DNA from: Bdellovibrionales bacterium
GTDB taxonomy: Bacteria; Bdellovibrionota; Bdellovibrionia; Bdellovibrionales; UBA1609
Assembly (NCBI GenBank): GCA_027317865.1
Contig: DAHVQG010000004.1
Coordinates: 32,001-96,000, forward strand
DNA length: 64,000 bases
Direction of reading: 5' to 3'
Shown: in pieces, positions 31,663 through 58,063 of the stretch
Layout: each line of letters opens with the position of its first letter
Numbering within the stretch: position 1 is the first letter of the stretch
Notes under the pieces: model-generated
Databases searched by the model: none
Told to the model about the DNA's origin: nothing
Seen by the model: only the letters and a program-made list of their open reading frames with translations
Program-made: the position numbers and the translations under genes

Positions 31663-31665
31663 GAA

Positions 31666-32436: not shown

Positions 32437-32462
32437 CGCTCCTTATTCCTAAAGGGTGTCCC

Positions 32463-39053: not shown

Positions 39054-39080
39054 GAAATGCCAAACCGAAAAGGGGGGATT

Positions 39081-39779
39081 ATGAAAACATTAGTACTCGG
39101 GCTTTTACTCGCGTTAGCTTATCAGCCCTGCGCTCAAGCGCTACAGTTTCAATTAGCACCGCCGTGCGGACGACACGCGTCTGTTGGCGAAGTTTGTTCA
39201 CTGCCAATTCTTGCATTGCATCCGACGCAATTTACACTTGGGATGATCGAAGTCCGAGCCCGCGCAGCGCAATTCGAAAGAAAAAAACCGGCGAAATTCG
39301 CGAAATACATGAAAAAGCATAACGTACCGGTCGTCATCGGTCCGGACGGCGTCTTTTATATGACCGATCACCACCACTTGTCCCGCGCGCTATATGAAGA
39401 CGGCGTCCGAACAGTCAATGCGCAAGTGACACACGACTGGTCGAATTTGAACAGGGCGCAGTTTTGGTCCCGGATGGAGTCAACAAAGCAAGTTTATCTC
39501 TATGAAGATGGCCGCGGACCGCTTTCACCGAGCGAACTTCCGAATAACATCTTACAGTTAAAAAATGACTACTACCGCAGTTTAGCTTGGGCCGTGTGTT
39601 CCCAAACGAAAGCATTCAAAAAAGAAAAGGTCCTCTTTTTTAGTTTTTATTGGGCCAATTTTTTCAGAGCGCGCATACCGGATTCACTCGTTCGCAATCA
39701 TTTTGAACAGGCGGTACAGTTAGGCGCTCAATTAGCACGTTCACCAGCGGCAAAAGGAATGCCCGGCTATCGCGGCTAA
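39081..39779 (+). CDS. ParB/Srx-like (ParBc_2-type) protein with signal peptide
   Basis: MKTLVLGLLLALAYQPCAQA; LHPTQ, VPVVIGP, YMTDHHHLSRA, LKNDYYRSLAW, FYWANFFR. Confidence 0.78.
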   Translation: MKTLVLGLLLALAYQPCAQALQFQLAPPCGRHASVGEVCSLPILALHPTQFTLGMIEVRARAAQFERKKPAKFAKYMKKHNVPVVIGPDGVFYMTDHHHLSRALYEDGVRTVNAQVTHDWSNLNRAQFWSRMESTKQVYLYEDGRGPLSPSELPNNILQLKNDYYRSLAWAVCSQTKAFKKEKVLFFSFYWANFFRARIPDSLVRNHFEQAVQLGAQLARSPAAKGMPGYRG

Positions 39780-39792: not shown

Positions 39793-40878
39793 TCAGGGTT
39801 CAAAGCAAAACCAGCCACCGACGGGGAAATGGTCGGTGGCACCACTTCCGGTTACCGGGTCAAAAGCAAGCGGTTTGCCACTTGGCGAAATAAACTCGTG
39901 GTGCCGAAGCGGCCCAAAGCTCCCTTGCTGCAAATATTTTAAAAAGTTTTGCGAAACAATGATCTGATCAAAGACTTCCCAACGCTTGCCGGCTTCAAAA
40001 AAACAGGTGGCCCGCTCTTTGAGTAAGCTTTCGGCATAATCATCTATTGTTTGCTTGTTTGCGCCTGGGTGTGCGGCCTTAAAATCGGCCATCCGTTTTT
40101 TCAAATTGAATGACTCTTCCTCTAAGTTACGCAATTTCTCAGTCATGCTTAATCCAAGACCGGCTTTCATTTCCGGGCTGTCGGGTTCCGCATTGAAATC
40201 ACCCATAATGATAATATTCGCAATCGGATTTCGTGACAAAATTTGATCGGTGACTTTTTTTAAAAACCGCGCCGCTTGAAACCGCTGCAACGCCGACCAG
40301 TCACCCAGTTTTTTACTTGGCCAATGGTTTACAAAGACAATCAGCTCTTCATCGTTTGGTAACCTTAAATGATATTCGACGATGGGTCTGGTCAAAAGAC
40401 CGCCTGAAAATTCTTTGCGCCCAAACCGCTTACGTTGCCGCCATAACGGATCGTCTTCGCTCCAATAGATATGCGCAACGGGCCCCTTAAGCATTGGAAA
40501 CCGTGAAATTAGCCCCAAGTTATTGCCGCGATCGTCCGCCTGAGGAGCAACGCCGTGACTGGCAAGACCCGATTTTTTCATCAAAGGATGCCGTACAAGT
40601 TGTGTCAAAAAATCACCGTCAACTTCGACGACTGCCAATAAATCGGGCCCTTTGTTGTCGTTCATTGAAGAAACCAATTTGGCTACCGCTTCAACTTTTT
40701 TTATTTCACTCTGTTTGTTCGGAAGAAATTTCTTATCGTGAATCAATTTAAACGCGTTCATCGTCGCTAGAAGATGCCCGCAAGAATAATTTGCGGATTT
40801 CTGCCGAGTCACCCCAATCGCATATGCGGGAACAAAAAAAATCGCACCCGCAAGCAGCAGGCGTTTCAACTTAGTCAT
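39793..40878 (-). CDS. Exported endonuclease/exonuclease/phosphatase (EEP) family protein
   Basis: Signal peptide; LAVVEV, VNHWPSK, MGDFN, FDQIIVS, TDHFPV catalytic motifs; ATG 40878 overlaps the upstream stop. Confidence 0.88.
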   Translation of the reverse strand: MTKLKRLLLAGAIFFVPAYAIGVTRQKSANYSCGHLLATMNAFKLIHDKKFLPNKQSEIKKVEAVAKLVSSMNDNKGPDLLAVVEVDGDFLTQLVRHPLMKKSGLASHGVAPQADDRGNNLGLISRFPMLKGPVAHIYWSEDDPLWRQRKRFGRKEFSGGLLTRPIVEYHLRLPNDEELIVFVNHWPSKKLGDWSALQRFQAARFLKKVTDQILSRNPIANIIIMGDFNAEPDSPEMKAGLGLSMTEKLRNLEEESFNLKKRMADFKAAHPGANKQTIDDYAESLLKERATCFFEAGKRWEVFDQIIVSQNFLKYLQQGSFGPLRHHEFISPSGKPLAFDPVTGSGATDHFPVGGWFCFEP

Positions 40879-42379
40879 CGTAACCCGAAAGCAAATCATC
40901 GCAATTCAGCTCCAACTGAGCCGACATTTTTTCAAATAATTTACGCTCACCGCTATTTAACGAATTAAAAAGATATCGCCGCCCCAACGGGCTGGAGTCA
41001 ACCGCCCGCAAAAGGTTTTTAAAAAAATCACGATTATTCAGTAGCGATTGACCCTTAAATTTTTCACCTCGAAATATTCCGATCAATCGCTTGAAATTAT
41101 ATTCAGTGGCGGTGCCCCTTTCGGCCATCCCCAATAGATCCTTAAATAAATCAAGCGCTGTCATCGGGGGATAAAGGCTTTTTGAAATTCGTTTTTTCGC
41201 GACCTGCATATATATCGCCATCGAATCAGTTGAATAATCTTTACTTGAAGATGACGTTTCGTCCTTATTACGCCAGTGCGGCACTTCGCCCCAACCATCC
41301 GAAAAAGAGGAAAATAGTGTTCGCCTTTCTTTAAACAGATCGGGAGCGGGAACTTGATCTTTAGGTATAAAAGTCAACGATTCGGTTCGTTTAAGTGGAA
41401 ATTCATACCCAAGTTCCAGCGCCGCTTTCTTAACTAAATCGATAAAGGTTGGGTCTCTCACAATTTTCATCACGTCGAACATTTCGCCGAGAATAGTTTC
41501 ATGCGCGGATGGCACATCTGCCCCCGGCGTTGTGCTTACTCGGCCATCCGCCGTGCGATGAAACGGACCAAACATTTCATGCCATCCGGTGGTATATGTG
41601 AGCGATGACGTTACCTTAGGCAAATAAAACGGATGAACCGGGCCTTCGGTCGTTATGTGACTGCGCTCCGATTCTTTCAATTGTTCAATATTAAGCGATG
41701 GCCTAATCACGTTGCTTTCAGTGCCGCCGCTCATGCCTATGCCAACGAAATTAACGCGATCGTAAAGCTTCTTTAAATCGCCTCCTTGAAGCGAATAACT
41801 TTGGTAAGCGGCGCGAATCAACTGACGCGATTGACTCGTTGAACGCCAACTCGTTACATCAAAGACGACAAACGGATAATCGTCGTTCATCTTTTCGAAA
41901 CTCAGCCCATTGCTACGTAAAAAATCAAACAAAAGCTCTCTGTCGTTTTGTGACGACTCTGTTGTCGCATTATAATAGTGTGGAAAACTCGGCCCGCTGG
42001 CATCCAGGCGCCTCACGCGGTTCTGTTGACCGATTGATTGATAGAAACCATCAAGCAAATCGGTCAGAAGCGCAACGTCGCGCCCAAGTCCAAGATATGT
42101 CGCACCCGGAAAAGCTCTTTCCATTGACGCAATGATGATTGCCGCATTTTGCGGTGAAAGCGAAACACCGTTATAAAACGGATTTATTGACGGCCATGTA
42201 TTGATTCCATATTTTGCGTCCATCGCAGATACAAACTCGTTTACAGTCGGACGGTTTCTTTGCTCTAAAAGCATTTGAATTGAATCGGCCGACCTCACGT
42301 TCATGCCGGCGGCCCGGCGGCCGTTGAAAACGCCAACTGTAAAAACGCAAATAAACGCCAAGCTTATCCAATACTTCAT
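40871..42379 (-). CDS. Exported PRTase-like 'GRD' family protein, paralog 3
   Basis: Signal-like N-terminus; FPGATYLGLGRD, SIGQQNRVRRL, PFVVFD, LGYEFPLKR shared with 48785 and 53594; C-terminal NCDDLL. Confidence 0.6.
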   Translation of the reverse strand: MKYWISLAFICVFTVGVFNGRRAAGMNVRSADSIQMLLEQRNRPTVNEFVSAMDAKYGINTWPSINPFYNGVSLSPQNAAIIIASMERAFPGATYLGLGRDVALLTDLLDGFYQSIGQQNRVRRLDASGPSFPHYYNATTESSQNDRELLFDFLRSNGLSFEKMNDDYPFVVFDVTSWRSTSQSRQLIRAAYQSYSLQGGDLKKLYDRVNFVGIGMSGGTESNVIRPSLNIEQLKESERSHITTEGPVHPFYLPKVTSSLTYTTGWHEMFGPFHRTADGRVSTTPGADVPSAHETILGEMFDVMKIVRDPTFIDLVKKAALELGYEFPLKRTESLTFIPKDQVPAPDLFKERRTLFSSFSDGWGEVPHWRNKDETSSSSKDYSTDSMAIYMQVAKKRISKSLYPPMTALDLFKDLLGMAERGTATEYNFKRLIGIFRGEKFKGQSLLNNRDFFKNLLRAVDSSPLGRRYLFNSLNSGERKLFEKMSAQLELNCDDLLSGYDD

Positions 42380-44442
42380 ATACCTTCCAAATTCTCGTGA
42401 TCAATAAGCAAATCAGCGCAACTGTGATTTTCAAAAATATTTTTGTATTGTTTGTATAGCGTCTTCCGCGCATCGGGCTGCAATCGTTCGATAGCTTGCC
42501 GGAGTTGCTCGCGGTTAGGATGCAATTCCAAAAACTTTGCAAATGAAACTGCCACAAAATCCGACATACGCCGTTCATACTTCGGCGTCGGATCTTCTTG
42601 GTCGAACTGTATAAGCCTTACATATTCGCTTGGAGTACGGACATAAGCCCTCATGACCTTTTTCATGTATTCAATAAACGGGGGACCGTGGCGCACCAGC
42701 GTTTTCAGTTCGTTCAATTGGTCAAAGCCGGGATGGCTCGCCATGATTAAATCCAAATTGTCTACCACAATTTGGGCAATCTGAGGTTTATTGAGCGTTC
42801 GGACAACCATCATATTTTTCACATATGAAATAAATGTCTCAGGTGAAGTAAGCGCTTGGCTCCATTCGTAATTTGCCACAAGAGGTATCAGAAGCGCCGA
42901 ATACTTTTCTTTTCGTAAATCATTTTCATCATTGTCGAGATAGTCCTTAATATTCAAATATTCGCTTTCGTTTAACGTAGTGAAAAGATTGTACCGGCGA
43001 ATTACGTAGTCGATAAAATCCGGATCTGCATTCCGAGCAATCAGCGCCGTTAAATTTTCTCGCGAAATATTCAAAGTTTCTGGAATGAGACTTAAACTAT
43101 TCCGGTTATACACGCTGATGATTCCCGGCATAAGCACGCTAAAATCTTTATTTTGAACCGAACGGGGATTAACCTCAAAACCAACCCAAATTTCGCCCGG
43201 TTTTCGAACAGGCGTCTCAGATAAAATAATACCGGGAGGACCCCGCATTGGATTCGTTTTTTGGTCGGGCAGCAACAAGTTAGGAGCGTTGAGTTTACCC
43301 ATACGAAGACGCTCGAATGTTTCAAAGTCATAAATTTTCATATAGGCCGTTTTTATTCCAAGTTCGCCCGCTGTCGCACCCTGTACGCCGCCCAAAGAAA
43401 ACGCCGGCAATGGCTTTTGCTCCATTAACCATGCAAGCGAATCCGTATCACTGCGCGACCCAAACGTAGAAAGGTCTTTGCGCACACCCATTCTGTTTAA
43501 ATCAGCCCATGCGGCGTTTACGTCTAAGGCGTTGTTGATAAGCTTATTTGCGTTTTTTTCGATCCAGCGCAAAGCTCCGTGATATTGCGGATCTGTCTTA
43601 ATTTTTGAAAATGGTGCCGTTCGCAAGATCCTTTCAACAACTTTGAGGCTATTGCGATCGGGTTTAAGGCCATACTCAAATACTTTTATTAAAAACCTCA
43701 ATGCACTGATGACAACAGGATTGCCGGACGAAGATCGCGAAGTGGAATGATGAAGGCCGGTATTAAAATAGGTGATTTCTCCACGGGCGACGTCGTGAAA
43801 AAACAATCCTTCATCGCGGCGGAATTTTCTCAAATCTTGAATTCGTGATCGCTCACCCGTTGGGTCAGTAATCTCAATAAGGCCTGTGGATCCCGAGTCT
43901 GTATTTTGATTCTTAAAATCTTCATTGTTTAAAATGTCCGCCTTGAAACCGATGGAATACTGGAGCGGGCGCACTTCCCAAACCGAAATAGTTTTACCAC
44001 CCGTTGTCTTTTTGTAGGGGAATTTCATCTCAAGGTCATGCTGAAGTTCTTCCGCATATTGAGGTTTCGCGTCAACCACAATATCGATGTCCTGATTAAA
44101 ATGAAATATATTGACGATGCTAAAATCCAGCCGATCAGCGGAGAAGTCCCGCGAACCGAGTTCATATTGTTCCGCCCAACGGCAATAAACGGCAAAGGCC
44201 TCCGCCGCTCCACCAAAAAGATAAGCCCGTATGCCTCTTTTTTCCGCCCATTCCTTTATAAATTGAAACTCTTTTACACGGTCCAAATCAGTCTGGATTA
44301 GCTTTTCAAACTCGAGATACGATCCGTTTTGCCTCGAAATGGAAAGCATTTCGGGGGGATTTTCGTTCGCCGACGCGAACGAAGGCCCGCATATAAGTAC
44401 AAGTGCGAAAACTGGCAAAAGAAATAGATTTAAAACCTTCAT
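42376..44442 (-). CDS. Exported nucleotidyltransferase-like protein (CCA/poly(A) polymerase-like head)
   Basis: Signal peptide ...FASA; AYLFGGAA, QDIDIVVD, DFKNQNTDS, SALRFL; C-terminal SCADLL. Confidence 0.6.
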   Translation of the reverse strand: MKVLNLFLLPVFALVLICGPSFASANENPPEMLSISRQNGSYLEFEKLIQTDLDRVKEFQFIKEWAEKRGIRAYLFGGAAEAFAVYCRWAEQYELGSRDFSADRLDFSIVNIFHFNQDIDIVVDAKPQYAEELQHDLEMKFPYKKTTGGKTISVWEVRPLQYSIGFKADILNNEDFKNQNTDSGSTGLIEITDPTGERSRIQDLRKFRRDEGLFFHDVARGEITYFNTGLHHSTSRSSSGNPVVISALRFLIKVFEYGLKPDRNSLKVVERILRTAPFSKIKTDPQYHGALRWIEKNANKLINNALDVNAAWADLNRMGVRKDLSTFGSRSDTDSLAWLMEQKPLPAFSLGGVQGATAGELGIKTAYMKIYDFETFERLRMGKLNAPNLLLPDQKTNPMRGPPGIILSETPVRKPGEIWVGFEVNPRSVQNKDFSVLMPGIISVYNRNSLSLIPETLNISRENLTALIARNADPDFIDYVIRRYNLFTTLNESEYLNIKDYLDNDENDLRKEKYSALLIPLVANYEWSQALTSPETFISYVKNMMVVRTLNKPQIAQIVVDNLDLIMASHPGFDQLNELKTLVRHGPPFIEYMKKVMRAYVRTPSEYVRLIQFDQEDPTPKYERRMSDFVAVSFAKFLELHPNREQLRQAIERLQPDARKTLYKQYKNIFENHSCADLLIDHENLEGI

Positions 44443-44459
44443 CCTTTAATTCGCAACCT

Positions 44460-47400
44460 TCATTCCTCTTTTGTGTTTGCGCTAACGGGTTGACGTATCA
44501 TTTTCGATAATAGAGTTGCGCACGAAACCGGCTTTGCGTTTTTTGCGCGCGCCTGCCAATCTTCGTACGTCCGAACCGGCTGTTGTGCGCTCTTTAATTT
44601 TTCTTCAATTTTGTGTTCAAGATCCTGAGCTCGCGATTCGCTTATGTCCCCTTTACGCATCAGCTCGGCGACTATCGCGCGAACAAGCGGCCATTTTTCT
44701 TTAAGAACGGCGATCGCAATTTCATGAGCGCGCGAAATCATTTGGCTTTGCTTTTGTTCAAACAATTGCCTTTGTCGCGAAGTTGCAAGAATTGGATTGC
44801 CTTTTTTATCGACTTGAACTCCTACAAGGTCGGTATCCATTCCCCATGTGGTGAGATATTCGGTTGTTACATATCTCATCGATTTCAAATCGTTTTGCCA
44901 TCCAATGTCGGCAGGTAAGCCCGCAAGCTCTTGAGCCACTCGACCGCCCCAAGCTTTAACAAGAAATGCCATCGTCTTATCGTAGTTGAAATTCGTATCC
45001 GCCCCGGGGATCGGCTTGTAATGCGCGTAGCCTTTTGCCGTTATCATTTTGCCGGTGAAATCTTTGAGGCGAGAATAGCGGATCGTAATATAATTCAAGA
45101 TCTCATTGGTTAATTCGGGATCATTTAAAACCGCGTGGCCAGCTTCATGGTAAGCCACTGTCTCAGCGTGTTTACCTAGCGGAATTTCGACTTCGGGCGC
45201 GAATTCCGTAAAGTCTTTTTGTATATAATCGAGTTTTTTACCATCCTTGTACACTTCAACGCCGACTAGAACCTTACGCGGCTCCGATTTTTTCTGGCGG
45301 TACGGTTTATTCGTCAAATTATCTTGAACATCGAGTTTGAATACATACGAAGACAAATCGTGCCCGATGTCGCCAGTCTTCATCAGTGCGGCTCCAAGAA
45401 GCGCACCCAGCCGGTTATCAAGCGCATTTCGAACCGATCGGCCACCTGTATCCGGGGTAAAAAATGCTCGGGTAAAATTCTCAACAAATTTAGGGCCGTA
45501 TTCAACAATCAGGCCCACGTGCTGTTCTTGCAGTCTGCGAATTTGATTTTTAAGTTCCTTTTCTGTGACACCTTTCATTTCGGTGGAAAGAAGCGGTTTC
45601 GCCAGTATGACGTCGGCTAGGCGCCCGAGAAACGCTTCGGGAATCCCATTTTTCACAAGATTCGCGCGAATGATCTCTTTCTTATTATTTTCGTTGTACG
45701 CATCCATTCTCAATTTATCGGTACTGAGACTCGTGAAGAATTCCTGCAAATCGTTGCCGGTGAATTCAAAAATATGATTTCGAAGATCGTATGTTCGGCC
45801 TGTTGCTGTCGACGTCCATTTGCCTTCGTCTAAAATTTCGTAGAAGTATTGCTTAAGCAGCTCTTCTTTGCGTTTGATGTCACCCCCGCCCATGTTAGAA
45901 AATTCATCGAAAACAATCACCCCGCCGTTTGGAGTGTTCATGAGCGCTCGCTCGAATTTTCCGATTTTGTGAGAGTCGACGTACCCGGCCGGTGAATTGA
46001 ATACGTCGTTCAAACGGCCCTCGAAATTAACATTGCCGAGTGGAATGACTTCAACTCGATCGGGTGAACCAAAAAGCGCCTCCGCAATTGCGCGGCCCAA
46101 TTCCGTCTTACCGACGCCCGTTGGGCCCACAATGGCAAACGATACGGCGGTTTTTCGACCCACGTCCGCATATTTCGACAATACGGCATCCGCTGCGCTT
46201 CGAACCGCTTCGTCTTGCCCGATAATCCGCGTCTTCATTCGTTCGGGCATCGATTGGATTTTTTCTAAAATTTCTTTGTCTTGAAGAGGATTAAAAAATT
46301 TCTGCTCGGGAGCGGCAACATCCAGGCTCTCGCTGTTGGTCCCATTTGTTACGCTCAATTTCACATCGGATGAGTTTTCGTTTTTGACTAAACCGATTTT
46401 AACTGTCCCATCCCGAGGGATATCCCAGTGGGCGCGTGCCTCGCGAATGGCAACTTTAAGATACGAATCGACCTGTTTGGCAACTTGCCGGTAGCCGTCC
46501 GTAACCGAAAATCCGGTCAGCGCTAAATGTTCAACCACAGCCGGCGAGACGTCGAGATGGAGATGATATTCAAACTCCATTTCGTTTTGCAATTTTTCAG
46601 TTTCACGGCGGGCAACCTCAATCGCGCCTTCTCGTGAACCCGGGTTGGCAATCGCCCACTCGTCGATTCGGCCCAAAACTTCCGGAGGTAATTGAAATTT
46701 GTCTTCGCCATCCGTCTTTTCGCGAAACAGTGCCGCGACGTCTTTTGATTTAAAACCTGCAAGTCGGCGATCGATTTCAGCCTGACTCCACATCGTAATA
46801 TTGTCCGGAAAAACGAGCTTCGCTCCCCGATTACTCGTGAGGATAACGATGTGACGGTTTGCCCGGCGAACTTTGCCATCGCCGCATGTAATTTCACCTT
46901 TATCAAAAAACTCCATTAACCGCTTCCACACATCAGGATGCATTTTTTCGGCTTCATTAATTACGATCACGCCGCCCATCTTGCCGCGAGAGGGGTCATC
47001 AAGGTATTCGCACAAAATACCGGACCTCTTATCTGAAGTTACCGTGCCGTTCGGTGAACCCACCAAAGTATTCACCGACAAGTCGCCGGTCTGATAGGTA
47101 TTGCCGTCTATAATGAGCGCTCTTCTTTTTGAACCGAATACTTTTTCAGCCAACGTTTCGGCAATTAAAGTCTTGCCGGTACCGGTAGTCCCGATAATCG
47201 CCATGACTTGCGGGCGCCTCGGGGTTCCGATTAATAAATTACCGACGCGTTCGACAAGCTTGTGAACCAAAGATTTCTGTTCAACAACAACGGAATCGAT
47301 CTCTTTTTCTTTCTCAGCTAAATATTCTTGAAAAGCCTTACCGTCGTGAGGGTTCGCCGGCAGCCCCGTGATCTCTTTTGCGTAATCGTAGATTTCGCTA

Positions 47401-48812: not shown

Positions 48813-50401
48813 GATTCCCCTTTTAGGTTTTGCTTAACCCTTTCAAATAACCTTATTTTTTTCAGCGTCCAGTAGAGCGTCTTTTTCTGGTCGATCTCGT
48901 AAATTTTTTTCTTCAAGTTCGGAACCGTTCTAAAAAGTTTTGCGTATGCTTCGAGAAACGACGACGTAATTTTAAAGTCGCTACTAAGGGCGGCAATCAC
49001 CATGTCGGCCACATCGGCTTGAGTGGCCCACGCGCTCGAATAAGCATTGGATAGGTAATTTAAAAAGCGCGGCATTATTGCGCTAAGCTTGCTCACTGAA
49101 CTGTGTCGTGCCCGTATATGTTGCCAGGTACTCTGAAGGTAATTGAAATTGACGCCGTTTTGTCCCGCCCCATTGCTTTGTGCAACTTGCATAGCGGTTT
49201 CGTTCACAGCTCGCGCTTTAGGCGTGAAATTTGAAAAATCAAACCCGGGAGCGTTCGCCTTTTTCACCATATCGTCATTGTGTTGCAAATCCTGCCTGAT
49301 GATATCGGTGAGGTTCGTCGCGGCAGATGACGGCTCACTCGCCTCAGGTGACGGTCTTTTAAGTGGGAATTCATAACCAAGCTTTTTAGCAGCCTCGTAA
49401 ACTTGATGGTGAAATGTCTCAGAGTTGACTGCGTTCCAAATTTCTTTTTGCATCCATAATATATTTTCGTGCGTTCTCAGATCCGTAATATTTCCGGGAG
49501 TTGCCTTTAACTTTCCGTCTATTGAAACAATCGGCCCGAATGACTCTGTCCACGCCCCGGAAAAATGCTCGTATCCAGCCTCGTTCGATTTGTCTTGGTT
49601 TTCTGAAAAGCCCGTAAGTTTGAACTCGTCCCCGAAATTATGGGGCCGATCTCCGGTCAGGCTAAACTGGATTTCAAGATCACGCGATACGCTCTTGATC
49701 GCTGAAGACGGTACTGGAGCTGATCTAAACGTGCTCACAAACAACGCAAACATGTTTAGCTTTTTAATTAGATCCGCCGGTTTGCCTTTAAGATCATTGG
49801 CGTAATGGGAATACAAGGCGTTCAAAAACATTCGCCCTTGCTGTCCGCCTCCGGTTGAAACGGTATCGACAAACACGTACGGTTCGCGACGTTTGATATC
49901 CTTGAAACTAAAACCGTGTTCCAAAACAAAATGAACCAATGTTTGCGGAGTAACGCCGTTGAAACTGGCCTTGCTTACCATCAACCGCACAACCCGGTTT
50001 TGTTGCCCAATCGAGAGGTAAAATCCTTCGAGCATGTCCGCAATTGCCTGCGAATCGCGGCCGATAAATGCCCATGTCGCACCCGGAAATGTTTTTTCCA
50101 TCGCCGCGATCAGAGTTGGCCCATGCTTAAGCATCACTTTAACCCAATGCTCAGGCTGGTAAACGTGCGCATTTTTGACCTGAATAACGCTCGGTACATC
50201 TTCAAATTCAGGCAACTGGTTTAAAAAAGGTACTGATTCAGCCATCGTCGGGCGCGACGGCATTTCAAGCAGTCGAACAATATCCGGAGGAATATTCACG
50301 GCCCAACTGTTGTCTTGTTGCTGTCCTCGCGAAGTCGCGGACACCGAAACCGTCAGCAAAAAAGTAAAACTATAAATTAAAACTTGTGACGCAATTCTCA
50401 T
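48785..50401 (-). CDS. Exported PRTase-like 'GRD' family protein, paralog 2
   Basis: Signal peptide ...SVSA; FPGATWAFIGRDS, YVFVDTVSTGGG (PRPP-loop-like), LGYEFPLKR; C-terminal SCAEVI. Confidence 0.62.
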   Translation of the reverse strand: MRIASQVLIYSFTFLLTVSVSATSRGQQQDNSWAVNIPPDIVRLLEMPSRPTMAESVPFLNQLPEFEDVPSVIQVKNAHVYQPEHWVKVMLKHGPTLIAAMEKTFPGATWAFIGRDSQAIADMLEGFYLSIGQQNRVVRLMVSKASFNGVTPQTLVHFVLEHGFSFKDIKRREPYVFVDTVSTGGGQQGRMFLNALYSHYANDLKGKPADLIKKLNMFALFVSTFRSAPVPSSAIKSVSRDLEIQFSLTGDRPHNFGDEFKLTGFSENQDKSNEAGYEHFSGAWTESFGPIVSIDGKLKATPGNITDLRTHENILWMQKEIWNAVNSETFHHQVYEAAKKLGYEFPLKRPSPEASEPSSAATNLTDIIRQDLQHNDDMVKKANAPGFDFSNFTPKARAVNETAMQVAQSNGAGQNGVNFNYLQSTWQHIRARHSSVSKLSAIMPRFLNYLSNAYSSAWATQADVADMVIAALSSDFKITSSFLEAYAKLFRTVPNLKKKIYEIDQKKTLYWTLKKIRLFERVKQNLKGESCAEVINES

Positions 50402-52158
50402 TCTTCAGCATCCATCGGTTCAAATTCATCTTTGGGGAATTCATGTCTGTCAGACCTTGGGTTCACCAATGATCTTTCAATCTCAACCTTCTTTTGGCTT
50501 TCTAGCTCTTCAACAACGGACGCGACCTTCTCGGCGCTATCGGCAACCAGTATGTGGCTCTTGATTTCTGGCGAAAGCGAACTGTTCGCTATAAATTTAA
50601 GTAAATACGAGTAGTACTTTGAATTTTGAATCACGACGTACGGGGGCCGCTTCGAGTATTGAATCGCCACGAGCGTCGCCGCGAGCTCGCGCATGGTTCC
50701 GTTACCGCCGGGCTCAATAATTACTAAATCACGATTGTTTACTAGCAACGGTATCCGTGAATGGTAATCAAGCGTCGGAATCGTGTGCGATTGAACTTCG
50801 CTTCTTGTATCCGTCTCGTAAGGCAGCGCTCCACGACCGACGCGGGGTATTCCAATTGAAGGTCCACCCGCATCGTAGGCCCCCATGTTTGCCGCGTACA
50901 TAACTCCACCAGCACCTCCGGTAACCACCGGAATGCCGCGGCTCCCGAACCAATATGCCGTTTGATACGTGTCGGGGGCGACTTCTTCGTCTAAACGGCT
51001 CGACCCGAAAACAGCGGCACCGCGAACGCCAGAAAGAACTCTTACACCTGAACGAGTAACGTCCACGTGCTCAAGAAGAGCAATGATTTCACCAAGACTC
51101 ATATTATTTGGCGAAATGCTAAATGCTTTTAGATTAACTGGATCTTTTACGGCCGGGAAAACCGAATACCGTACTGATTCCAAAACGCGAGTGGCGTTGA
51201 CGATTGCAGATATCGAGTTTGTGATGCCAAGCCGCCGGTAGGATATTCCAAAACCCCTTTTTTCAGATTCCAGTAGACTCGACCAATCGTGAAGGCGATT
51301 TTTTGTATTACCGTCGAGGTCGAGAACAAATCCCGCATCATTATTGAGGAGTGCGGCCATCCCTAACGTCGAGTCCGGGCTTACAATTGCCGGCAAGGCA
51401 TGTGAAACGACTTCAAGAAATGAATACGAATTATTGAAATGTAAAACAATGCCAGGACGGCCTCTTTCATTTCTTGCCCCGGCTTCGGGTAACATTGAAA
51501 TTCCGATGCCGCAGGGACCCGCCGCTCGAGCAATTATTTCCGCCGCTTTGTTGTCGGCATCGTAGATAATTGTATAGTTTTTTGCCACGAGCTGAGCGAC
51601 AAGCCGTTCGTACTTCGTGGCTTCGGTGTCTGTTGGCGCACGATCGGACGAACCAACGAGAACCGAAACCAGTTTCGAGCGCGGCAACCTGTACACTTCT
51701 AATATTTGTTTGTAGTCTTCAAAAAATCCTCTATCTTCGGGTACAGCCAACCGCTCTTTTAGAACCGGGATCAACGACAACCGGTTTTTTTCTTTTAATT
51801 CTTCGATCAACCCCTCGAGTTTTTTTATTTTAAATTTGAGGTCAGCTATCTTCTTTTTGACTTCCGCGCGTTTTTCCGGTGAACGGGCTGCTGGTGATTT
51901 TTCGGCGTATTCGAGGTAAAAACCCCAAAAATCGCTTGCATCACTTGACTCAAGTTTGTTTTTTAATGACCTAATCTCGCGTTCCATTTCGCGAAGTTTT
52001 TCTATTGCTTCGACGAGTTGCGGGCTGCGGTATTCGGCAAGTTTAAAGGCCTGGGCTTTTTCACCTTTTAAGACACGGTCGCAAGGCTGCCCGTAGGCGC
52101 TAGAAATCGCGAAGGTTGAAACCACAAAAGCGCATAAAAACAAGCGGCGCGAAATCAT
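50398..52158 (-). CDS. Exported tandem LOG/SLOG nucleotide phosphoribohydrolase
   Basis: AAVFGSS, VTGGAGGVM, SIGI, SRIPLL, PGGNGTMREL; preceding degenerate LOG copy; N-terminus SRRLFL...AYG. Confidence 0.82.
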   Translation of the reverse strand: MISRRLFLCAFVVSTFAISSAYGQPCDRVLKGEKAQAFKLAEYRSPQLVEAIEKLREMEREIRSLKNKLESSDASDFWGFYLEYAEKSPAARSPEKRAEVKKKIADLKFKIKKLEGLIEELKEKNRLSLIPVLKERLAVPEDRGFFEDYKQILEVYRLPRSKLVSVLVGSSDRAPTDTEATKYERLVAQLVAKNYTIIYDADNKAAEIIARAAGPCGIGISMLPEAGARNERGRPGIVLHFNNSYSFLEVVSHALPAIVSPDSTLGMAALLNNDAGFVLDLDGNTKNRLHDWSSLLESEKRGFGISYRRLGITNSISAIVNATRVLESVRYSVFPAVKDPVNLKAFSISPNNMSLGEIIALLEHVDVTRSGVRVLSGVRGAAVFGSSRLDEEVAPDTYQTAYWFGSRGIPVVTGGAGGVMYAANMGAYDAGGPSIGIPRVGRGALPYETDTRSEVQSHTIPTLDYHSRIPLLVNNRDLVIIEPGGNGTMRELAATLVAIQYSKRPPYVVIQNSKYYSYLLKFIANSSLSPEIKSHILVADSAEKVASVVEELESQKKVEIERSLVNPRSDRHEFPKDEFEPMDAEE

Positions 52159-53597
52159 TGAGAACCTTTCAGTATCGCCTGACAGTCGCCAGCGGATTTA
52201 TCATGTGGTTTAACAATAAGATCTTCGACAGCACGGCCGAGTTCCTCACCGATCGGGACAATGACGAGTTTGGAATTCTGTTTTACGACCGCATTTGATA
52301 CGGGATACGAATCCGTCACAACCAGTTGATCAATAGATGCACTATTGAGCGCTTTACCGCCGTCGCCCGCGAGGTGTGTAACGACCGCAATAACTTTAGT
52401 CGCCCCTGCTTTCTTCAAATAATCAGCCACGTCCGCTAATGTGCCCCCGGTTGACGTTTCATCGTCTACAATAGCGACAACTTTGCCCGCCGGGCTCGGT
52501 CCGCTGAATCCGTAAAATTTTGTTTGAGCAGTGAGTGGATCGCGCTGTTTATTGGCGACAGCAACAGGCAACTTCAGCATGTCCGCATAAAGCGTGGCAT
52601 CTTTTTGAAATCCCGTATCCGGTGAAACAATCATTTCAACATCGGCATTTCGCAAGTACGCGCACAATGTATTAAGGCCCAAAACATTAAAGCTCGGAAT
52701 ATCAAAAAAGCCCTGTGATTGCGGAGCGTGTGCCCGAGCAAATTCGATAGCCTCTGTGCCAACACTTTCAATTAAGTCGGCAATCAGACGGCCAATCACC
52801 GTTACACCTTTTTGATCCGCCTTATCCGATCGCGCCCACGGCAACGGCGTTACCCACGTTACGGCGGCTCCATCTCTTGTCATCTGCGCAACTCGCGCCA
52901 AGGCGGCAAAAAAGGTTTCACTTTTGGGGATTACGACTGGCCTCACAAAAATTATTTGCGCGCCCTTTACCGCTCCTCTCGGGAGAGAACCTGGATTATA
53001 AACCGGCAAATTCAGAACACGCCCCATATCGCGAGCAATCGAATCGTGGGAGTCTTGAAGAATAAAACTGTGTGTCAGATGATGCCTGCCGGGCCAAACA
53101 CGACGGATTCTAATGGTTCGCGGATGGTTCCCGTTTTCAACAAACTTGGTCGCACCCGCTATGCCGATAAGCGATTCCACCGGTAAGGCAAGCGAACCGT
53201 TTGCGGTCGTGACCCGTATTTTTGAAATCGAAGTATTAAGAAAAGCAACAATCTCTCGTGCACCGAGCGTTCTTGCCGTTCGAATCTTAATCAAAGCCTC
53301 CATAAACATTTGGGGCGTCATTTCATCTGGAATCAAAATCCCGACTCGTTTGCCAGTAAGATTGGTCTGCACGCGCACGAAAGTGTCGCCGTTAGAAAAC
53401 TCTTGAGTTTTTTCTTCAATCATCCGGCAGCCAGGGTGTGACGTGCAGAATCGATTAGCAGCTTCTGAAAAATTACGTACAGAGAATAGTAATACGCTTC
53501 GATTGCGGGCGCTGGCGTAACCCGAGCCGACGAGCATAAGGGTCGTCATGCTCAAAAATGCAATTTTATTTAAACCCAACCCTTTCATCGTCCTCAC
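52155..53597 (-). CDS. Exported ribose-phosphate pyrophosphokinase (PRPP synthetase)-like protein with duplicated N-domain
   Basis: FSNGD, PWARSDK, HAPQSQGFFDIP, VSPDTG, KQR, IVDDETSTGGTL; signal peptide ...YASA; C-terminal DCQAIL. Confidence 0.88.
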   Translation of the reverse strand: MRTMKGLGLNKIAFLSMTTLMLVGSGYASARNRSVLLFSVRNFSEAANRFCTSHPGCRMIEEKTQEFSNGDTFVRVQTNLTGKRVGILIPDEMTPQMFMEALIKIRTARTLGAREIVAFLNTSISKIRVTTANGSLALPVESLIGIAGATKFVENGNHPRTIRIRRVWPGRHHLTHSFILQDSHDSIARDMGRVLNLPVYNPGSLPRGAVKGAQIIFVRPVVIPKSETFFAALARVAQMTRDGAAVTWVTPLPWARSDKADQKGVTVIGRLIADLIESVGTEAIEFARAHAPQSQGFFDIPSFNVLGLNTLCAYLRNADVEMIVSPDTGFQKDATLYADMLKLPVAVANKQRDPLTAQTKFYGFSGPSPAGKVVAIVDDETSTGGTLADVADYLKKAGATKVIAVVTHLAGDGGKALNSASIDQLVVTDSYPVSNAVVKQNSKLVIVPIGEELGRAVEDLIVKPHDKSAGDCQAILKGSQ

Positions 53598-55198
53598 CCT
53601 GCAGGTTTCAAAACGTCACTACACGTGGCTTCTAACATTTTACTTAACCGCTCATATGCCTTCGATCCGAGCGGACCGGATTTATGTTCGTTATTTAAAA
53701 AATATTCCCTCTTTGAGTTCCAAACTTCTTCGAAGGTGCGGCTGTTATGGTAGAGATGCGCCAAGCCGCTTTCAAATTTCTCACGCTCGCTCACGGCCGC
53801 GCCATTAACCGTGTCTTCACTTGCAATTGGATAGTTCGCAAGTAAACGCTTGATTAGGCGGCGAAGATCGCGCGCGCTAATTTTGCCATTTTCAAATGCA
53901 TGTACCGAACCCGCTAAAAACATGAGCGCAATTTGACCCGAATTTTTGTCAGTGCGGCCGTAAACATCCGATTTCATAAGAGACAAAATCTTCATTCCGT
54001 TTTCAGTCATCGGTTCGGCATCTTCACCAACAGGGCCAAGCTCTGAAATTATATCTTTGAACGATCTCTGCGCTTCAGCTATACGCTGTTCGGCAATTTC
54101 GTCGGCCGTTAGCATTCGAATGTCCGTTCGTTCGCGCGCGCGCCCCTCTGGGAACTCATACCCCAGTTCTCTAGCCGCTTTTTGCACTTCACTATAAAAC
54201 TCTTTTGTCGAAACAATTCCTATGATGTCGTACAGACCACCTAAAATTGTTTGGCGTATTTCAACGCTGGACAGACCTCCAGGTGGAGCGAAAACGCGCC
54301 CGTCTTGCATGCGCTGAAGTTGAAGGAATGGGCCGTGCCACTCTGAGCTGTAAGCAAGTTGGGCGCCATCGATTTTCAAAATTCGATCAGGACCGGTTGG
54401 CTGAGCATTCGATGTTTTAATGTACTTTTCGATTTTTTTTACAGTTTCATAATTTTGCGATCCAATTATCGGGTAGTTCGAATTTTTTATGTCAATGACA
54501 TTGACCTTCATCAAAAGGTTCGTGAGCGGCTTTTGTGTGCCTTGGTACACACTATAAAACGCACCAATATATTGGCGGCTTTGGCTCGTAGGGCTGTAAC
54601 TGGTCGCATCGATAATAATAAACGGCGGGTCTTGATCCACAGACTGCAGATGAAGTCCGTTAGTCGCCAAAAAATCGACCAAAATATCGGGCGTGCTGCC
54701 AACCAAAGATTGCCCGCTTGCATTGAGCCGCACGACGCGATGGTTTTGCCCGTGAGCTCGGTAAAAAGCGTCGACCATATCGGCAATCAATGCGGAGTCG
54801 CGACCCAAAAACGCATACGTTCCGCCCGGGTAGGCCGCTTCAAGACTAGCAATAATTTTTGGCCCGTCAGCCTTGGTTACAGCCACGGCTTGCGAACGTT
54901 CACCGGCATTTCTAAAGGGATTTTTTCTTGGCCACGGCGTTAACGCATTTTCGATTTCGGCAATGGTCGGGCGAGATTGCATGTTAAGCAATTCATTGAT
55001 TTTTTCATCACGAGCCTTTTTAGCTAATTGCTCCTGAACTTGCGGTTCGCCCCCATCGCTCAAATTAGTTGTCGTTATAGTCCCAAAGGCTCCGTGCCAG
55101 GACGTCCGGCTATTCGCCGCACGAACCTTCGCCGACACCGAAGCTGCTACAATTAAACCGGCGATCAACATTGATAACGCCTTACCCATTTTCCCCAC
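53594..55198 (-). CDS. Exported PRTase-like 'GRD' family protein, paralog 1
   Basis: Signal peptide ...SVSA; YPGGTYAFLGRDS, RVVRLNAS, PFIIID, LGYEFP; C-terminal TCSDVL. Confidence 0.6.
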   Translation of the reverse strand: MGKMGKALSMLIAGLIVAASVSAKVRAANSRTSWHGAFGTITTTNLSDGGEPQVQEQLAKKARDEKINELLNMQSRPTIAEIENALTPWPRKNPFRNAGERSQAVAVTKADGPKIIASLEAAYPGGTYAFLGRDSALIADMVDAFYRAHGQNHRVVRLNASGQSLVGSTPDILVDFLATNGLHLQSVDQDPPFIIIDATSYSPTSQSRQYIGAFYSVYQGTQKPLTNLLMKVNVIDIKNSNYPIIGSQNYETVKKIEKYIKTSNAQPTGPDRILKIDGAQLAYSSEWHGPFLQLQRMQDGRVFAPPGGLSSVEIRQTILGGLYDIIGIVSTKEFYSEVQKAARELGYEFPEGRARERTDIRMLTADEIAEQRIAEAQRSFKDIISELGPVGEDAEPMTENGMKILSLMKSDVYGRTDKNSGQIALMFLAGSVHAFENGKISARDLRRLIKRLLANYPIASEDTVNGAAVSEREKFESGLAHLYHNSRTFEEVWNSKREYFLNNEHKSGPLGSKAYERLSKMLEATCSDVLKPAG

Positions 55199-55201
55199 TG
55201 G

Positions 55202-57613
55202 TTATTCCCTCAACCTTTCAGTTTTAACGCTTTTCGCGCCGTTATCTAAATATTTCGTATTTATATCACTTAACGCATTTCGAATGTCGTCCGCCGAATT
55301 CACCAAATATATCCTCGACAAAACCGATGCTGGTAACTTCGATTCTTTAAGATAGTTGGCAAGCGATCCGTAGAAATCGTTGGCCACAAAAATGATGCTT
55401 TGGCTCTTATTGAGGCCCGATGCGAAATTGACAAAAGCTGTCGCCAGTTCTTGAAGCGTCCCCTTACCGCCCGGCATGACCACGACAACGTTGTTCATAT
55501 AGAGCAACAACGGGATACGCGTTCGATAGTCAGTCGTTGATAAGGTCAGATTATGGACATCTGTCGCTGCCGATTTTTCACGCCATAGACTGCCACTCTC
55601 AAGCGGAATACCGATCGAAATGCCACCCGAGTTTATGGCGGCATCGTTGGCAATTCTCATAAACCCGTCCGCTCCACCAGTCGCAATGGCCAAACCGCTT
55701 TGCGCGATGGTTTTCGAGATGCTGTAAACCATCGAATCATATTTTGACTCTCGGGTACTTGAACCGAAAACGACCGCGCCCCCGGGAGTTTTTTGGCGTA
55801 ACGCCTGAACGGCTTCGGTCATTTCACGCTGATAATTCGAAATTTGTGAAAGTTGGTGGCGATCTAATTTCGCGATAAATTGGCCGTCATTTAATCGAAC
55901 CGGTTCCGTTTCTGCGAAGACAATTCCCGGCGTATCGCTATATTTTTCATAATCACTATATTTGCTATATTTTGATTTTTTACCGCGAAGACTTTCAATC
56001 GCTTCGTTGTTTGTTTTAAATTTTTGGATGCTAAGAAAGTGGTAATTGTCTCGAATCCCAAACGAGTAACCGTCAATGTTGTCAGTCCATTTGCGTAAGC
56101 CACCTAAGATGGGAAAATCAGAATTGTTGATAGTGCCGTCAATGTCCTTTTGAAGAAGCAATCCAAACCCGGTGACCGAGTCAGCCGTCATGATTCGATT
56201 GTTCGAATATGCAAACGCCTTCATTCTTAGGTACGGATTGGGTATCGATAAAATCTGGCTATTGTGGAGCATTGTTTCCGAACCGGCGGTCACTTCGCTC
56301 GTAATACCGACTCCACGGTCACCGACGGCTTCTGCGATAAGCGGCGCTGTCGGCACGTCGGCATCAAAAAAAACTATATAACCGTTCTTCGCCGCCGATC
56401 GAGCCAGCTCCACCGCTTCATTGGCATCGGCGTTGTTTGCGGCGCCCGTCAGAAGTGTCAGAGTTTTTGAAGTTCCGTCGCAGATAGCTTGCACCCAACG
56501 ATAATTCAGCATTTCACGGAGGTAGCCGCTATTTGCGTTTTCTTGTTTCAGTGCCGATATAAAATTGGCTTGAAGTTCGGCCGTCTGCTTTAACTCTCGT
56601 TCACGTTCCGCAATAAGCCGTTTTCGCTCGTTTTCTCTTTGTTTGGCGGCTATCTCTTCGTAATTTTCTTGAAGTTCGCTCAATGCGACTCCCTTCGGAT
56701 AATCGCTCTCTTTTAGAAATTTGAAATTCCAGTCAGCGGTACGCACGAGACGCGGCTTACCGTCATCGTCGAAAAATGAAACCACGTAGTCAGAGTTAAT
56801 TAATGAATCCCTTGCCCGGCCATAAACCAATGCGATCCGTTTCGACTTCGTCTTTATGCCTGAAACGGATGAGCCCGTAACCGGATCACGAAAGAACGAA
56901 TTTGAACTCAATACAGCAGCAGCCACTGCATGTTCCGGCTTTAATCCCTCGGTTTTGCGAATCACGGTGTTGATTGCCAACAACTCCTTCGTCGGAGATT
57001 CAACTTTTGTCGACGGAATCGGCACTTCCGCGGCAGCTAGCGATTCTGTTTTATTTTCTAAAGCATTGAGTTTCGGCGATTCTCGTCGTAACAATACCGA
57101 CGCCGCGACCAACGTCGAGTGGCCTTTGATTCGTGAAAATTCCGTTCCGTGTCTTTTAAAAGCAGAATCGTTGTAAAACTCTAATTCTTCTGGTTCAACC
57201 CAAGCGATTCGACGGCCATGAGTTGTCCATCCAGAAATTGCGACGGATGTTCCGCCTAACTTAAAATCATTGTTTTTAACCCCATAGACATAAATATCGT
57301 TCAACGGCGAAAGCACGACGTTACCGCTTAAGGCAATTGGCGAGGTCAATTTGGCGAGAGCGATCGGTTTCGTTTCGGCACTAACCTCAGCTATGTCCGT
57401 TGTGAGTGCTTTGATCGCTTTTTTAAAAGTCGGCTCTGTGGTATTTGTCCCACGCAGAATCAATTCGCAAACTGTAGACTTCTTTTCACTTTTCCCATTT
57501 TTCTTTGTGGCCGCGTGGGCCGAATTAAAGCTGAACAATATCAACAATGAAACAAGCAAAAGGGCTTGAGAATTACAGTCGTGAGACTTGAGCTTTAATG
57601 GCGCCCCCTTCAT
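55202..57613 (-). CDS. Exported tandem LOG/SLOG protein with extra N-terminal region
   Basis: Signal peptide ...SAHA; AVVFGSS, ATGGADGFM, SIGI, TRIPLL, PGGKGTLQEL; degenerate first LOG copy; RBS-like AAGGTGAGGGG upstream. Confidence 0.82.
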   Translation of the reverse strand: MKGAPLKLKSHDCNSQALLLVSLLILFSFNSAHAATKKNGKSEKKSTVCELILRGTNTTEPTFKKAIKALTTDIAEVSAETKPIALAKLTSPIALSGNVVLSPLNDIYVYGVKNNDFKLGGTSVAISGWTTHGRRIAWVEPEELEFYNDSAFKRHGTEFSRIKGHSTLVAASVLLRRESPKLNALENKTESLAAAEVPIPSTKVESPTKELLAINTVIRKTEGLKPEHAVAAAVLSSNSFFRDPVTGSSVSGIKTKSKRIALVYGRARDSLINSDYVVSFFDDDGKPRLVRTADWNFKFLKESDYPKGVALSELQENYEEIAAKQRENERKRLIAERERELKQTAELQANFISALKQENANSGYLREMLNYRWVQAICDGTSKTLTLLTGAANNADANEAVELARSAAKNGYIVFFDADVPTAPLIAEAVGDRGVGITSEVTAGSETMLHNSQILSIPNPYLRMKAFAYSNNRIMTADSVTGFGLLLQKDIDGTINNSDFPILGGLRKWTDNIDGYSFGIRDNYHFLSIQKFKTNNEAIESLRGKKSKYSKYSDYEKYSDTPGIVFAETEPVRLNDGQFIAKLDRHQLSQISNYQREMTEAVQALRQKTPGGAVVFGSSTRESKYDSMVYSISKTIAQSGLAIATGGADGFMRIANDAAINSGGISIGIPLESGSLWREKSAATDVHNLTLSTTDYRTRIPLLLYMNNVVVVMPGGKGTLQELATAFVNFASGLNKSQSIIFVANDFYGSLANYLKESKLPASVLSRIYLVNSADDIRNALSDINTKYLDNGAKSVKTERLRE

Positions 57614-57986: not shown

Positions 57987-58063
57987 TGGCGTCCCCGGCA
58001 AGAATTGAACTTGCGGCCTGCAGTTTAGGAAACTGCTGCTCTATCCGGCTGAGCTACGGGGAC
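57987..58063 (-). tRNA. tRNA-Arg (anticodon CCT)
   Basis: GTCCCCGTAGCTCAGCCGGATAGAGCAGCAGTTTCCTAAACTGCAGGCCGCAAGTTCAATTCTTGCCGGGGACGCCA folds as a cloverleaf, anticodon CCT, encoded CCA. Confidence 0.96.

Follow-up and report, generated by a model that had tools for sequence, protein, structure and literature searches.

We describe here a putative nine-gene operon of apparently exported enzymes from a Bdellovibrionales bacterium, located on the minus strand at 39793-57613 of a 64,000-nucleotide stretch of contig DAHVQG010000004.1 (positions 32,001 to 96,000; the whole of this stretch is called the window below). Its core is formed by LOG-type N-ribohydrolases, two old subtypes of an unannotated enzyme family, here called GRD, and a long-form phosphoribosyl pyrophosphate (PRPP) synthetase (PRS). 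Judged from sequence comparison, it appears to be a conserved gene module of the Oligoflexia/Bdellovibrionota, in which a triple-AAA+/M41 protease, a CCA-adding-like nucleotidyltransferase and an EEP hydrolase seem to be accessory. All nine products begin with a signal-peptide-like sequence and carry a short cysteine-containing motif near one end of the mature chain, and this Cys tag is the strongest sign that the nine proteins would be handled as one set. As a tentative reading, which we prefer and yet hold to be somewhat short of probable, exported PRS and LOG would run a cycle from ATP to adenine and PRPP, and the PRPP would feed phosphoribosyl transfer by the GRD proteins on prey-derived material.

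Results

The genes run in the order g1 (LOG; 55202-57613, 803 amino acids), g2 (GRD-1; 53594-55198, 534 amino acids), g3 (long PRPP-synthetase-like; 52155-53597, 480 amino acids), g4 (LOG; 50398-52158, 586 amino acids), g5 (GRD-2; 48785-50401, 538 amino acids), g6 (triple-AAA+/M41 protease; 44460-48812, 1450 amino acids), g7 (CCA-adding-like nucleotidyltransferase; 42376-44442, 688 amino acids), g8 (GRD-3; 40871-42379, 502 amino acids) and g9 (EEP-family hydrolase; 39793-40899, 368 amino acids), all on the minus strand. From g1 to g9 the intergenic spacings are 3, -4, -4, -4, -28, 17, -4 and -29 nucleotides (nt), and the starts are preceded by plausible ribosome-binding sequences. These positions and spacings agree with an earlier interpretation made from the letters of this DNA (the sequence-only reading), which had described nine co-oriented, near-abutting open reading frames (ORFs) at these coordinates with gaps of 17 nt or less. 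The domains which it had named (LOG, PRS, AAA+/M41, nucleotidyltransferase and EEP) were likewise recovered with Pfam, TIGR01251 and Foldseek, and g2, g5 and g8 proved to be paralogues of one family. The layout is consistent with one transcription unit, without proving it; pattern scans for promoters and terminators stayed at chance level (20 found versus 23.8 expected, and 28 versus 26.8).

Export was judged by a crude in-house rule that combines a 12-residue hydrophobic window, N-terminal positive charge, a charge-free core and a small-x-small site. By this rule a signal-like N-terminus was detected in 9/9 operon proteins and in 7/42 other ORFs of the window (Fisher p = 3.8e-6), as had been proposed for all nine products from their starts. 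Every alternative start codon of the nine genes precedes the hydrophobic core, and no further hydrophobic 19-mer was found in any of the nine proteins. With the same rule, 31 of 50 long PRS-like proteins were signal-like, compared to none of 48 PRS of housekeeping length. Export by the twin-arginine translocation (Tat) route was considered and rejected: only g4 has an SRRxFL-like start (SRRLFL), which we take to resemble the twin-arginine motif, and since its homologues lack this start the likeness is probably due to chance. In one report, a Sec signal peptide alone took NanoLuc to the supernatant in Bdellovibrio bacteriovorus (PMC12622784).

The second common feature of the nine proteins is the motif Cys-x-x-[LIV]-[LIVF] within 30 residues of a mature end, which occurs in all nine but is absent from the remaining 42 ORFs of the window (p = 3.3e-10). 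The tag is N-terminal in g1 (CELIL, residue 49; 57455-57469), g4 (CDRVL, residue 26; 52069-52083) and g9 (CGHLL, residue 40; 40768-40782). It is C-terminal in the other six, namely g2 (CSDVL, residue 526; 53609-53623), g3 (CQAIL, residue 472; 52170-52184), g5 (CAEVI, residue 531; 48797-48811), g6 (CATLL, residue 1431; 44508-44522), g7 (CADLL, residue 675; 42406-42420) and g8 (CDDLL, residue 493; 40889-40903), again all on the minus strand. In g2, g5 and g8 the tag Cys is the sole Cys of the mature chain.

The tag is not confined to this operon but belongs to the families as such. Among GRD proteins, C-x3-[LIVMFY] was found in the last 30 residues of 129/155, compared to 31/2421 internal 30-residue windows; these last 30 residues hold 135 of the 274 Cys of the family, at a median of one Cys per protein, and an alignment of 101 sequences shows a conservation of at least 90% for the tag Cys. 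When a tail Cys is present, position +4 is Leu in 87/133 proteins and a median of 8 residues follow the Cys (range 3-25, mostly polar). Even the short GRD forms without the helical C-terminal part have the tag at their end. The tag is present in 10/10 members of the nucleotidyltransferase family, in 39/50 long PRS-like proteins versus 1/48 of housekeeping length, and at the N-terminus of 7/11 LOG homologues. In the structure models it lies at ends of low confidence (predicted local distance difference test, pLDDT, below 50 at residues 529-538 of g5 and 682-688 of g7), and these ends are probably flexible. We rejected the possibility that the tag is a by-product of the ribosome-binding site of the next gene, as the Cys codon lies at least 20 nt upstream of the next start and the tag is also found at N-termini, before gaps and in last genes.

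Like MYXO-CTERM, PEP-CTERM, GlyGly-CTERM and CaaX, the tag is a short terminal motif common to unrelated exported proteins, and it shares an invariant Cys with MYXO-CTERM and CaaX, as we take the properties of those signals to be. Unlike in MYXO-CTERM and its relatives, the Cys is followed by neither a membrane helix nor a basic cluster, and in contrast to the known sorting tags and CaaX it may stand at either terminus and at no fixed distance from the end. No NCBIfam sorting-domain model matched the tagged proteins, and no partner gene for the tag emerged from the flanks of six related loci, which share nothing beyond the module.

These loci (L001-L006) were obtained from five metagenome-assembled genomes (MAGs) in a scan of one genome per species with a single GRD peptide pattern, so divergent loci were missed. 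All six come from MAGs named Oligoflexia, Bdellovibrionia, Bdellovibrionales or 'delta proteobacterium', two of them from one MAG. A LOG gene adjoins a GRD gene in 6/6 loci, which bears out the expected co-occurrence of homologues in other genomes, and the LOG-GRD association is more than chance. A PRS-like gene is present in 2/6 loci (L002 and L003), the AAA+/M41 protease together with the nucleotidyltransferase in 1/6 (L003) and an EEP gene in 0/6. Gene order varies between the loci and the flanking genes are unrelated. In a tree of the catalytic parts, a GRD-2 clade (100/100) holds one member each from the window and L001-L005, a GRD-3 clade is supported by 97/95, and each locus with at least two GRDs has one of the GRD-2 type and one of the GRD-1/3 type. 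Matches to GRD and to long PRS on contigs of equal size (8452, 53586, 28276 and 146651 nt) suggest further co-location. Two of the loci contain additional genes. In L003 an alpha/beta-hydrolase gene lies inside the module and a holin-superfamily-IV gene directly after it (11501-13220 and 19820-20164), and in L006 a 188-amino-acid ORF beside the LOG gene (5289-5855, minus strand), with no Pfam match, has a signal-like N-terminus followed by Cys-x3-Phe and may represent a further tagged protein family.

The g3 product passes the ribose-phosphate diphosphokinase subfamily model TIGR01251 (152.1 bits, cut-off 113) and misses all equivalog cut-offs, the best being NF002844 (134.3 bits, cut-off 438). 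Aligned to human PRPS2 it retains the His of HAxQ, the KxR loop and DDxxxTGGT, and these catalytic motifs are invariant in two orthologues. It belongs to a clade of 50 long PRS-like proteins (443-487 amino acids, E <= 7e-51), in which H[AS]xQ is kept in 50/50, DDxxxxGx[TS] in 49/50 and [NHK]KxR in 49/50. Compared to the usual PRS of about 315 amino acids, the 480 residues of g3 include an extra segment of about 150 amino acids that resembles a partial repeat of the N-terminal half of PRS; residues ~37-118 and 184-270 each match one and the same portion of the N-terminal domain of PRS, which suggests that the segment arose by partial internal duplication. With a score above the TIGR01251 cut-off and with the catalytic His and the KxR and ribose-5-phosphate loops in place, g3 is like the class I ribose-phosphate diphosphokinases, from which it differs by its separate long clade, signal-like N-terminus, C-terminal Cys tag and extra repeat. 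We know of no exported PRS.

The two LOG proteins have a C-terminal LOG/SLOG domain, at residues 615-784 in g1 (LDcluster4 53.5 bits, Lysine_decarbox 37.6 bits) and 382-546 in g4 (51.4 and 47.9 bits), in each case above the Pfam cut-offs of 26.3 and 27 bits. The motifs PGGxGTxxE and GGxGGxM, which we take to be the PGGxGTxxE and GGGxGxM-type motifs of LOG enzymes, are invariant across 11 LOG sequences (P483, G484, T488 and E491; G415 and G418), and the phosphate-site Arg is also kept in g1 and g4. Against the PDB the g4 domain matched 1wek_A (2.1e-13) and cytokinin riboside 5'-monophosphate phosphoribohydrolases. In g1 the signal-like N-terminus and Cys tag are followed by about 560 unannotated residues, including a degenerate Rossmann domain (YDAD...GIGIS), and then by the LOG domain; in g4 the tag is followed by a coiled-coil-like stretch, a degenerate Rossmann domain and the LOG domain. 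Residues 35-610 of g1 had no Pfam match, and no Pfam family was found for the N-terminal regions of g1, g4 and g6, where g4 gave coiled-coil-type noise only. While the C-terminal domains, with their Pfam scores and motifs, are those of LOG/PpnN-type N-ribohydrolases of the SLOG superfamily, g1 and g4 depart from these by a signal-peptide-like start, an N-terminal Cys tag and 380-600 extra N-terminal residues that hold the second, degenerate Rossmann domain. With the catalytic motifs kept in both, neither PRS nor LOG seems obviously inactive, a possibility that had been raised along with the sequence-only reading.

The GRD proteins matched nothing by sequence in Pfam, NCBIfam, PADLOC or the PDB, and PDB profile searches with alignments of 20 and 101 GRD sequences gave no link to a known family. 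A 26-residue helix motif in lpg1496-type chains recurred in these PDB searches (E 0.15-1.1) and was treated as chance. An Atlas search had a top score of 0.81 and led to no family. A GRD profile search retrieved 352 clusters at 50% identity, of which 284 had E <= 1e-30, and because weak matches were few GRD is best viewed as a family of its own that nothing links to named families. Some 20-30 residues past the GRD signal peptide there is an Arg-Pro-Thr motif, with R50 and P51 conserved in at least 90% of 101 GRDs.

The g5 (GRD-2) model (pLDDT 82.5) has an alpha/beta catalytic part at about 30-355 and a variable helical C-terminal part. In the alpha/beta core a strand is followed by an invariant Gly-Arg-Asp loop, and a strand ending at the invariant D179 is followed by a Ser/Gly-rich loop with the invariant Q188 that leads into a helix, a layout that presumably recalls the pyrophosphate and PRPP loops of type I phosphoribosyltransferases (PRTases). 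The best Foldseek match of this model in the PDB was Bcs3 (8a0m_D; E 0.024, probability 0.99, template modelling (TM) score 0.27), the aligned part of this multienzyme not being visible from the match, and lower in the list were 8a0c_B (Bcs3), 7shg_B (a ribofuranosyltransferase of T. composti) and PyrR. The report on Bcs3 describes its CriT part as a PRTase-like core flanked by helical bundles, which moves ribofuranose-5-phosphate from PRPP to a hydroxyl as an O-linked product (PMC10299916). GRD is like CriT/gPRT (Bcs3 8a0m; T. composti 7shg) in the alpha/beta core with flanking helical parts and in the strand that ends in Asp before a Ser/Gly-rich loop, much as in a PRPP loop; in contrast, the match does not reach significance (E 0.024, TM 0.27), the sequences are not similar, a phosphatase partner is lacking, and GRD is signal-bearing and tagged.

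We call GRD a putative phosphosugar-type alpha/beta enzyme, for which the g5 model does no more than suggest a PRTase/CriT-like fold. That GRD uses PRPP is the guess we favour, chiefly since an enzyme that makes PRPP accompanies it. A complex prediction for LOG (g4 150-586) and GRD-2 (30-355) scored 0.00 in two runs without controls, which is evidence neither way. Against viral models the GRD model mf2143bb910f2 resembled uncharacterised giant-virus proteins (Harvfovirus, E 1.1e-3; Klosneuvirus, E 3.2e-2), and nothing named was found among these models.

Among the accessory proteins, g6 has Pfam matches to AAA_2 (131.1 bits), AAA (73.8 bits) and Peptidase_M41 (49.3 bits, cut-off 29.9). It carries three Clp/Hsp100-like P-loop AAA+ modules (Walker A at 249, 541 and 896), a ClpB D2-small domain and the M41 metalloprotease HExxH as HEAGH at 1226. 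Its Walker B residues are DE, NE and DE, the Asn-Glu of the second module being shared by the L003 orthologue (34% identical), which keeps the AAA+/M41 motifs. Against the FtsH model TIGR01241 it reached 47 bits (cut-off 600). Thus the M41 domain with HExxH is as in FtsH and the AAA+ modules are ClpA/B/V-like, but g6 has three AAA+ modules fused to M41 instead of one, lacks the paired membrane helices of FtsH, having one signal-like N-terminal stretch only, and differs from both FtsH and Clp/Hsp100 in the second Walker B (NE), the C-terminal Cys tag and scores far under the equivalog cut-offs. The signal region of g6 ends in FFGAC, which we take to fit the lipobox pattern; the L003 orthologue has no Cys there.

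In g7 (model pLDDT 85.3) a CCA-adding-like fold occupies the N-terminal ~300 amino acids, followed by a helical C-terminal half. Its 10 PDB matches by Foldseek at E <= 1e-3 are all class-II CCA- or A-adding tRNA nucleotidyltransferases (probability 1.00, about 280-320 aligned columns, the head-and-neck fold), and the Atlas lead was Gad2/PolyA_pol (score 0.85). G77, G78, D118 and D120 (GG...DxD) are invariant in the 10 sequences of the family, with an unusually long spacer of 38 residues, and neither PolyA_pol nor any other Pfam family matched g7 or any of these members at E <= 1. The N-terminal fold and the GG...DxD are as in the head of class II CCA-adding enzymes and poly(A) polymerases and in Gad2, from which g7 differs in the lack of a Pfam match, the spacer, the signal-like start, the helical half and the Cys tag. 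The last product, g9, belongs to the EEP family (Exo_endo_phos_3, 78 bits, cut-off 27) and had no PDB match by sequence.

The G+C content of the operon (0.44-0.49) is near that of its surroundings. A tRNA-Arg(CCT) gene (57987-58063, minus strand) lies 373 nt upstream and was the sole match in an Rfam scan of the window. A genomic island at this tRNA was rejected, as no second copy of the tRNA 3' end was found within the window and the G+C content is near that of the surroundings. On the downstream side a convergent gene on the plus strand (39057-39779) encodes a ParB-like nuclease (ParBc_2, 176 bits) with a signal-like N-terminus by the in-house rule and without the Cys tag; it may be a further exported nuclease beside the operon. 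Upstream, at 58089-63990 on the minus strand, are genes for a sigma-54 response regulator, a PAS histidine kinase and T2SSF and T2SSE (PilC/PilT-like) proteins, and further downstream, at 28607-33398 on the minus strand, an ABC-2 transporter with GldG-like auxiliary proteins.

Discussion

PRS converts ribose-5-phosphate and ATP to PRPP and AMP, and LOG/PpnN-type enzymes cleave nucleoside 5'-monophosphates to a base and ribose-5-phosphate. In the mechanism that we prefer, the nine products would take the Sec route out of the cytoplasm and be treated as a single set through their shared terminal tag. The AMP released by PRS would be split by LOG to adenine and ribose-5-phosphate, and together the two enzymes would turn ATP into adenine and PRPP, the regenerated ribose-5-phosphate acting as a catalyst only. 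The GRDs would spend the PRPP to phosphoribosylate one or more acceptors, and as a result the adenylate and nucleotide pool of the prey would be irreversibly drained or harvested, possibly with a new phosphoribosyl modification. The periplasm is without ATP, whereas three of the enzymes (PRS, the AAA+ protease and the nucleotidyltransferase) depend on ATP or other nucleoside triphosphates. The set is therefore expected to work in a place that holds prey ATP, either the prey cytoplasm or the permeabilised prey cell around the predator. The genes and their domains, the intact motifs, the export-like starts, the tag and the conserved module are seen in the sequences, while the cycle, the site of action, the reaction of the GRDs and the purpose of the tag are inferences from them. 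A comparable case would be Ceg14 of Legionella, an actin-activated ATP/dATPase that is also a secreted enzyme lowering the ATP of the target cell; Ceg14 is described as a single type IV effector with other chemistry (PMC12092593), in contrast to a multi-enzyme set with Sec signals and a proposed cycle.

The sequence-only reading had joined the nine products into one exported pathway from nucleotides to PRPP. The operon, the domains and the signal-like starts speak for such a pathway, but its opening step, in which the nuclease makes nucleoside monophosphates, did not hold as a conserved step, as an EEP homologue is in none of the related loci, and the protease and the nucleotidyltransferase recur in one locus alone. 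The PRTase fold which that reading gave to the GRDs is no more than suggested: the structural match to Bcs3 is weak (E 0.024), and profile comparisons with PRS found nothing. The reading is thus borne out in part, and it had overlooked the Cys tag that all nine products share.

Several observations weigh against the preferred mechanism. The predatory lifestyle is taken only from the names of the MAGs of relatives. The crude export rule also flags the 7/42 ORFs outside the operon, and the tag is absent from 26/155 GRD, 11/50 long PRS-like and 4/11 LOG homologues, the tag-less proteins including fragments and proteins with uncertain starts. Four of the six related loci have no PRS, two of these four being short contigs, and the EEP hydrolase is missing from all six. 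One acidic residue (Asp) of the PRS ribose-5-phosphate loop is Ser in g3. Both LOG proteins miss the TIGR00730 cut-off of 96.35 bits (g1 56.2, g4 48.2), which means that AMP is perhaps not the substrate. As to the GRDs, Pfam matched 0/20 members of the family (E <= 1, including Pribosyltran) and 0/30 long members, hhalign of GRD versus PRS returned probabilities of 0.4 and 0.1, no PDB match by Foldseek reached E <= 1e-3, and many SIS-domain phosphosugar proteins score about level with PRPP enzymes.

The most likely role of the tag, in our view, is that of a handle by which the set is sorted or secreted together, perhaps in a second secretion step; disulfide-linked assembly would come second and a degron for the g6 protease third. 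One could go further and propose that Cys-x3-Leu marks a dedicated export or assembly route of Oligoflexia predators which brings ATP-dependent enzymes into the prey, where PRS and LOG would run as a self-sustaining cycle and the GRDs, as a new branch of PRPP-dependent transferases, would phosphoribosylate prey macromolecules, for example RNA 2'/3'-hydroxyls at tRNA ends presented by the CCA-adding-like protein; we regard this extended proposal as unlikely.

The same chemistry would also serve nutrient salvage only. Leaked prey nucleotides would be turned around the predator into importable forms (bases, ribose-5-phosphate and PRPP-derived nucleotides); neither toxicity nor a new modification would be involved, and GRD would act as a base phosphoribosyltransferase of the ordinary kind. 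According to work cited in PMC13689555, B. bacteriovorus reportedly uses nucleoside monophosphates and RNA ribose of its prey and has ATP transport, which fits such a role. However, a base PRTase acting after LOG would spend ATP in a futile loop, the sequence of GRD does not resemble those of base PRTases, and three GRD paralogues of two old subtypes, a protease and a nucleotidyltransferase exceed the needs of salvage. We hold salvage as the whole explanation to be unlikely, though it deserves to be kept in mind.

The structural neighbours of GRD bring in another explanation, the modification of a glycan or cell wall outside the cytoplasm. Here the GRDs would be CriT-like O-phosphoribosyltransferases that place ribofuranose-5-phosphate from PRPP onto a surface polymer, either of the own envelope or of prey peptidoglycan or lipopolysaccharide, and the exported PRS would make the donor on site from ribose-5-phosphate supplied by the LOGs. 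The best neighbours (8a0m_D, 8a0c_B and 7shg_B) are indeed PRPP-dependent ribofuranosyltransferases of capsule or O-antigen, the CriT product is O-linked ribofuranose-5-phosphate made from PRPP (PMC10299916), and all nine proteins look exported. Against this, the matches are weak (E 0.024 or worse), neither a HAD-type phosphatase (CrpP-like) nor glycan-export genes were found in the operon or the six related loci, a source of ATP outside the cytoplasm would still be required, and the AAA+ protease and the CCA-adding-like enzyme would be left unexplained. This makes glycan modification a rather doubtful account of the set.

It seems improbable that the tag is a degron, i.e. that terminal Cys-x3-Leu marks the enzymes and g6 itself for timed destruction by the AAA+/M41 protease. 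An unfoldase-protease is encoded in the same operon and the tag sits at exposed, low-confidence termini, as known terminal degrons do, but the protease gene stands beside tagged genes in only 1/6 related loci, and a near-invariant single Cys points to thiol chemistry over mere recognition.

The pairing of a phosphoribosyltransferase-type enzyme with a SLOG-superfamily protein is shared with ShosTA and PsyrTA, which are cytoplasmic two-gene systems, unlike the present set with its export signals and with GRDs that have no ShosT match. PADLOC gave weak matches of PsyrA to g1 (7.8e-4) and g4 (5e-6) and of ShosT to g3 (1.4e-4), which are short and not full-length (60-62 residues of PsyrA and 37 of ShosT; E 5e-6 to 7.8e-4), and a PDC-M37B/DolB match to the AAA+ part of g6, and the order LOG then GRD with 4-nt overlaps is like that of antidote-toxin pairs. 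Still, a cytoplasmic conflict system of the anti-phage or toxin-antitoxin-like kind, in which the hydrophobic N-termini would have no part in export and the GRD product would be neutralised by LOG, is very improbable given the signal-like starts (positive n-region, small-x-small) of 9/9 proteins and most homologues, the very low Cys counts common in exported proteins, the lack of PADLOC matches for GRD and g7 where those found concern generic PRTase, SLOG and AAA+ domains, and a context without mobile elements or a defence island.

Returning to the exported PRS and LOG cycle, the individual domains are known, whereas their combination is not, nor are the tag, the GRD family, the signal-bearing triple-AAA+/M41 protein and the clade of long, apparently exported PRS proteins. 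Full-text searches, which covered neither subscription papers nor supplements, turned up no account of the operon, of a PRPP synthetase that is exported or of the tag. ATP-dependent 'housekeeping' enzymes such as a PRPP synthetase, a Clp/FtsH-type unfoldase-protease and a CCA-adding-like protein are unexpected outside the cytoplasm. The conversion of ATP to adenine and PRPP by PRS and LOG is a simple and directly testable biochemical claim, and GRD adds an unannotated enzyme family of several hundred clusters. As a terminal signal for sorting or assembly, the Cys tag would be new and open to genome-wide searches, and in case a dedicated tag route and the phosphoribosylation of prey were both true, a new protein-sorting signal and a new toxic modification would be gained together. 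These questions bear on how Bdellovibrio-like predators bring enzymes to the contents of their prey, and if our reading is true, this exported and conserved set would be a new way for predatory bacteria to attack or harvest the nucleotide pools of their prey.

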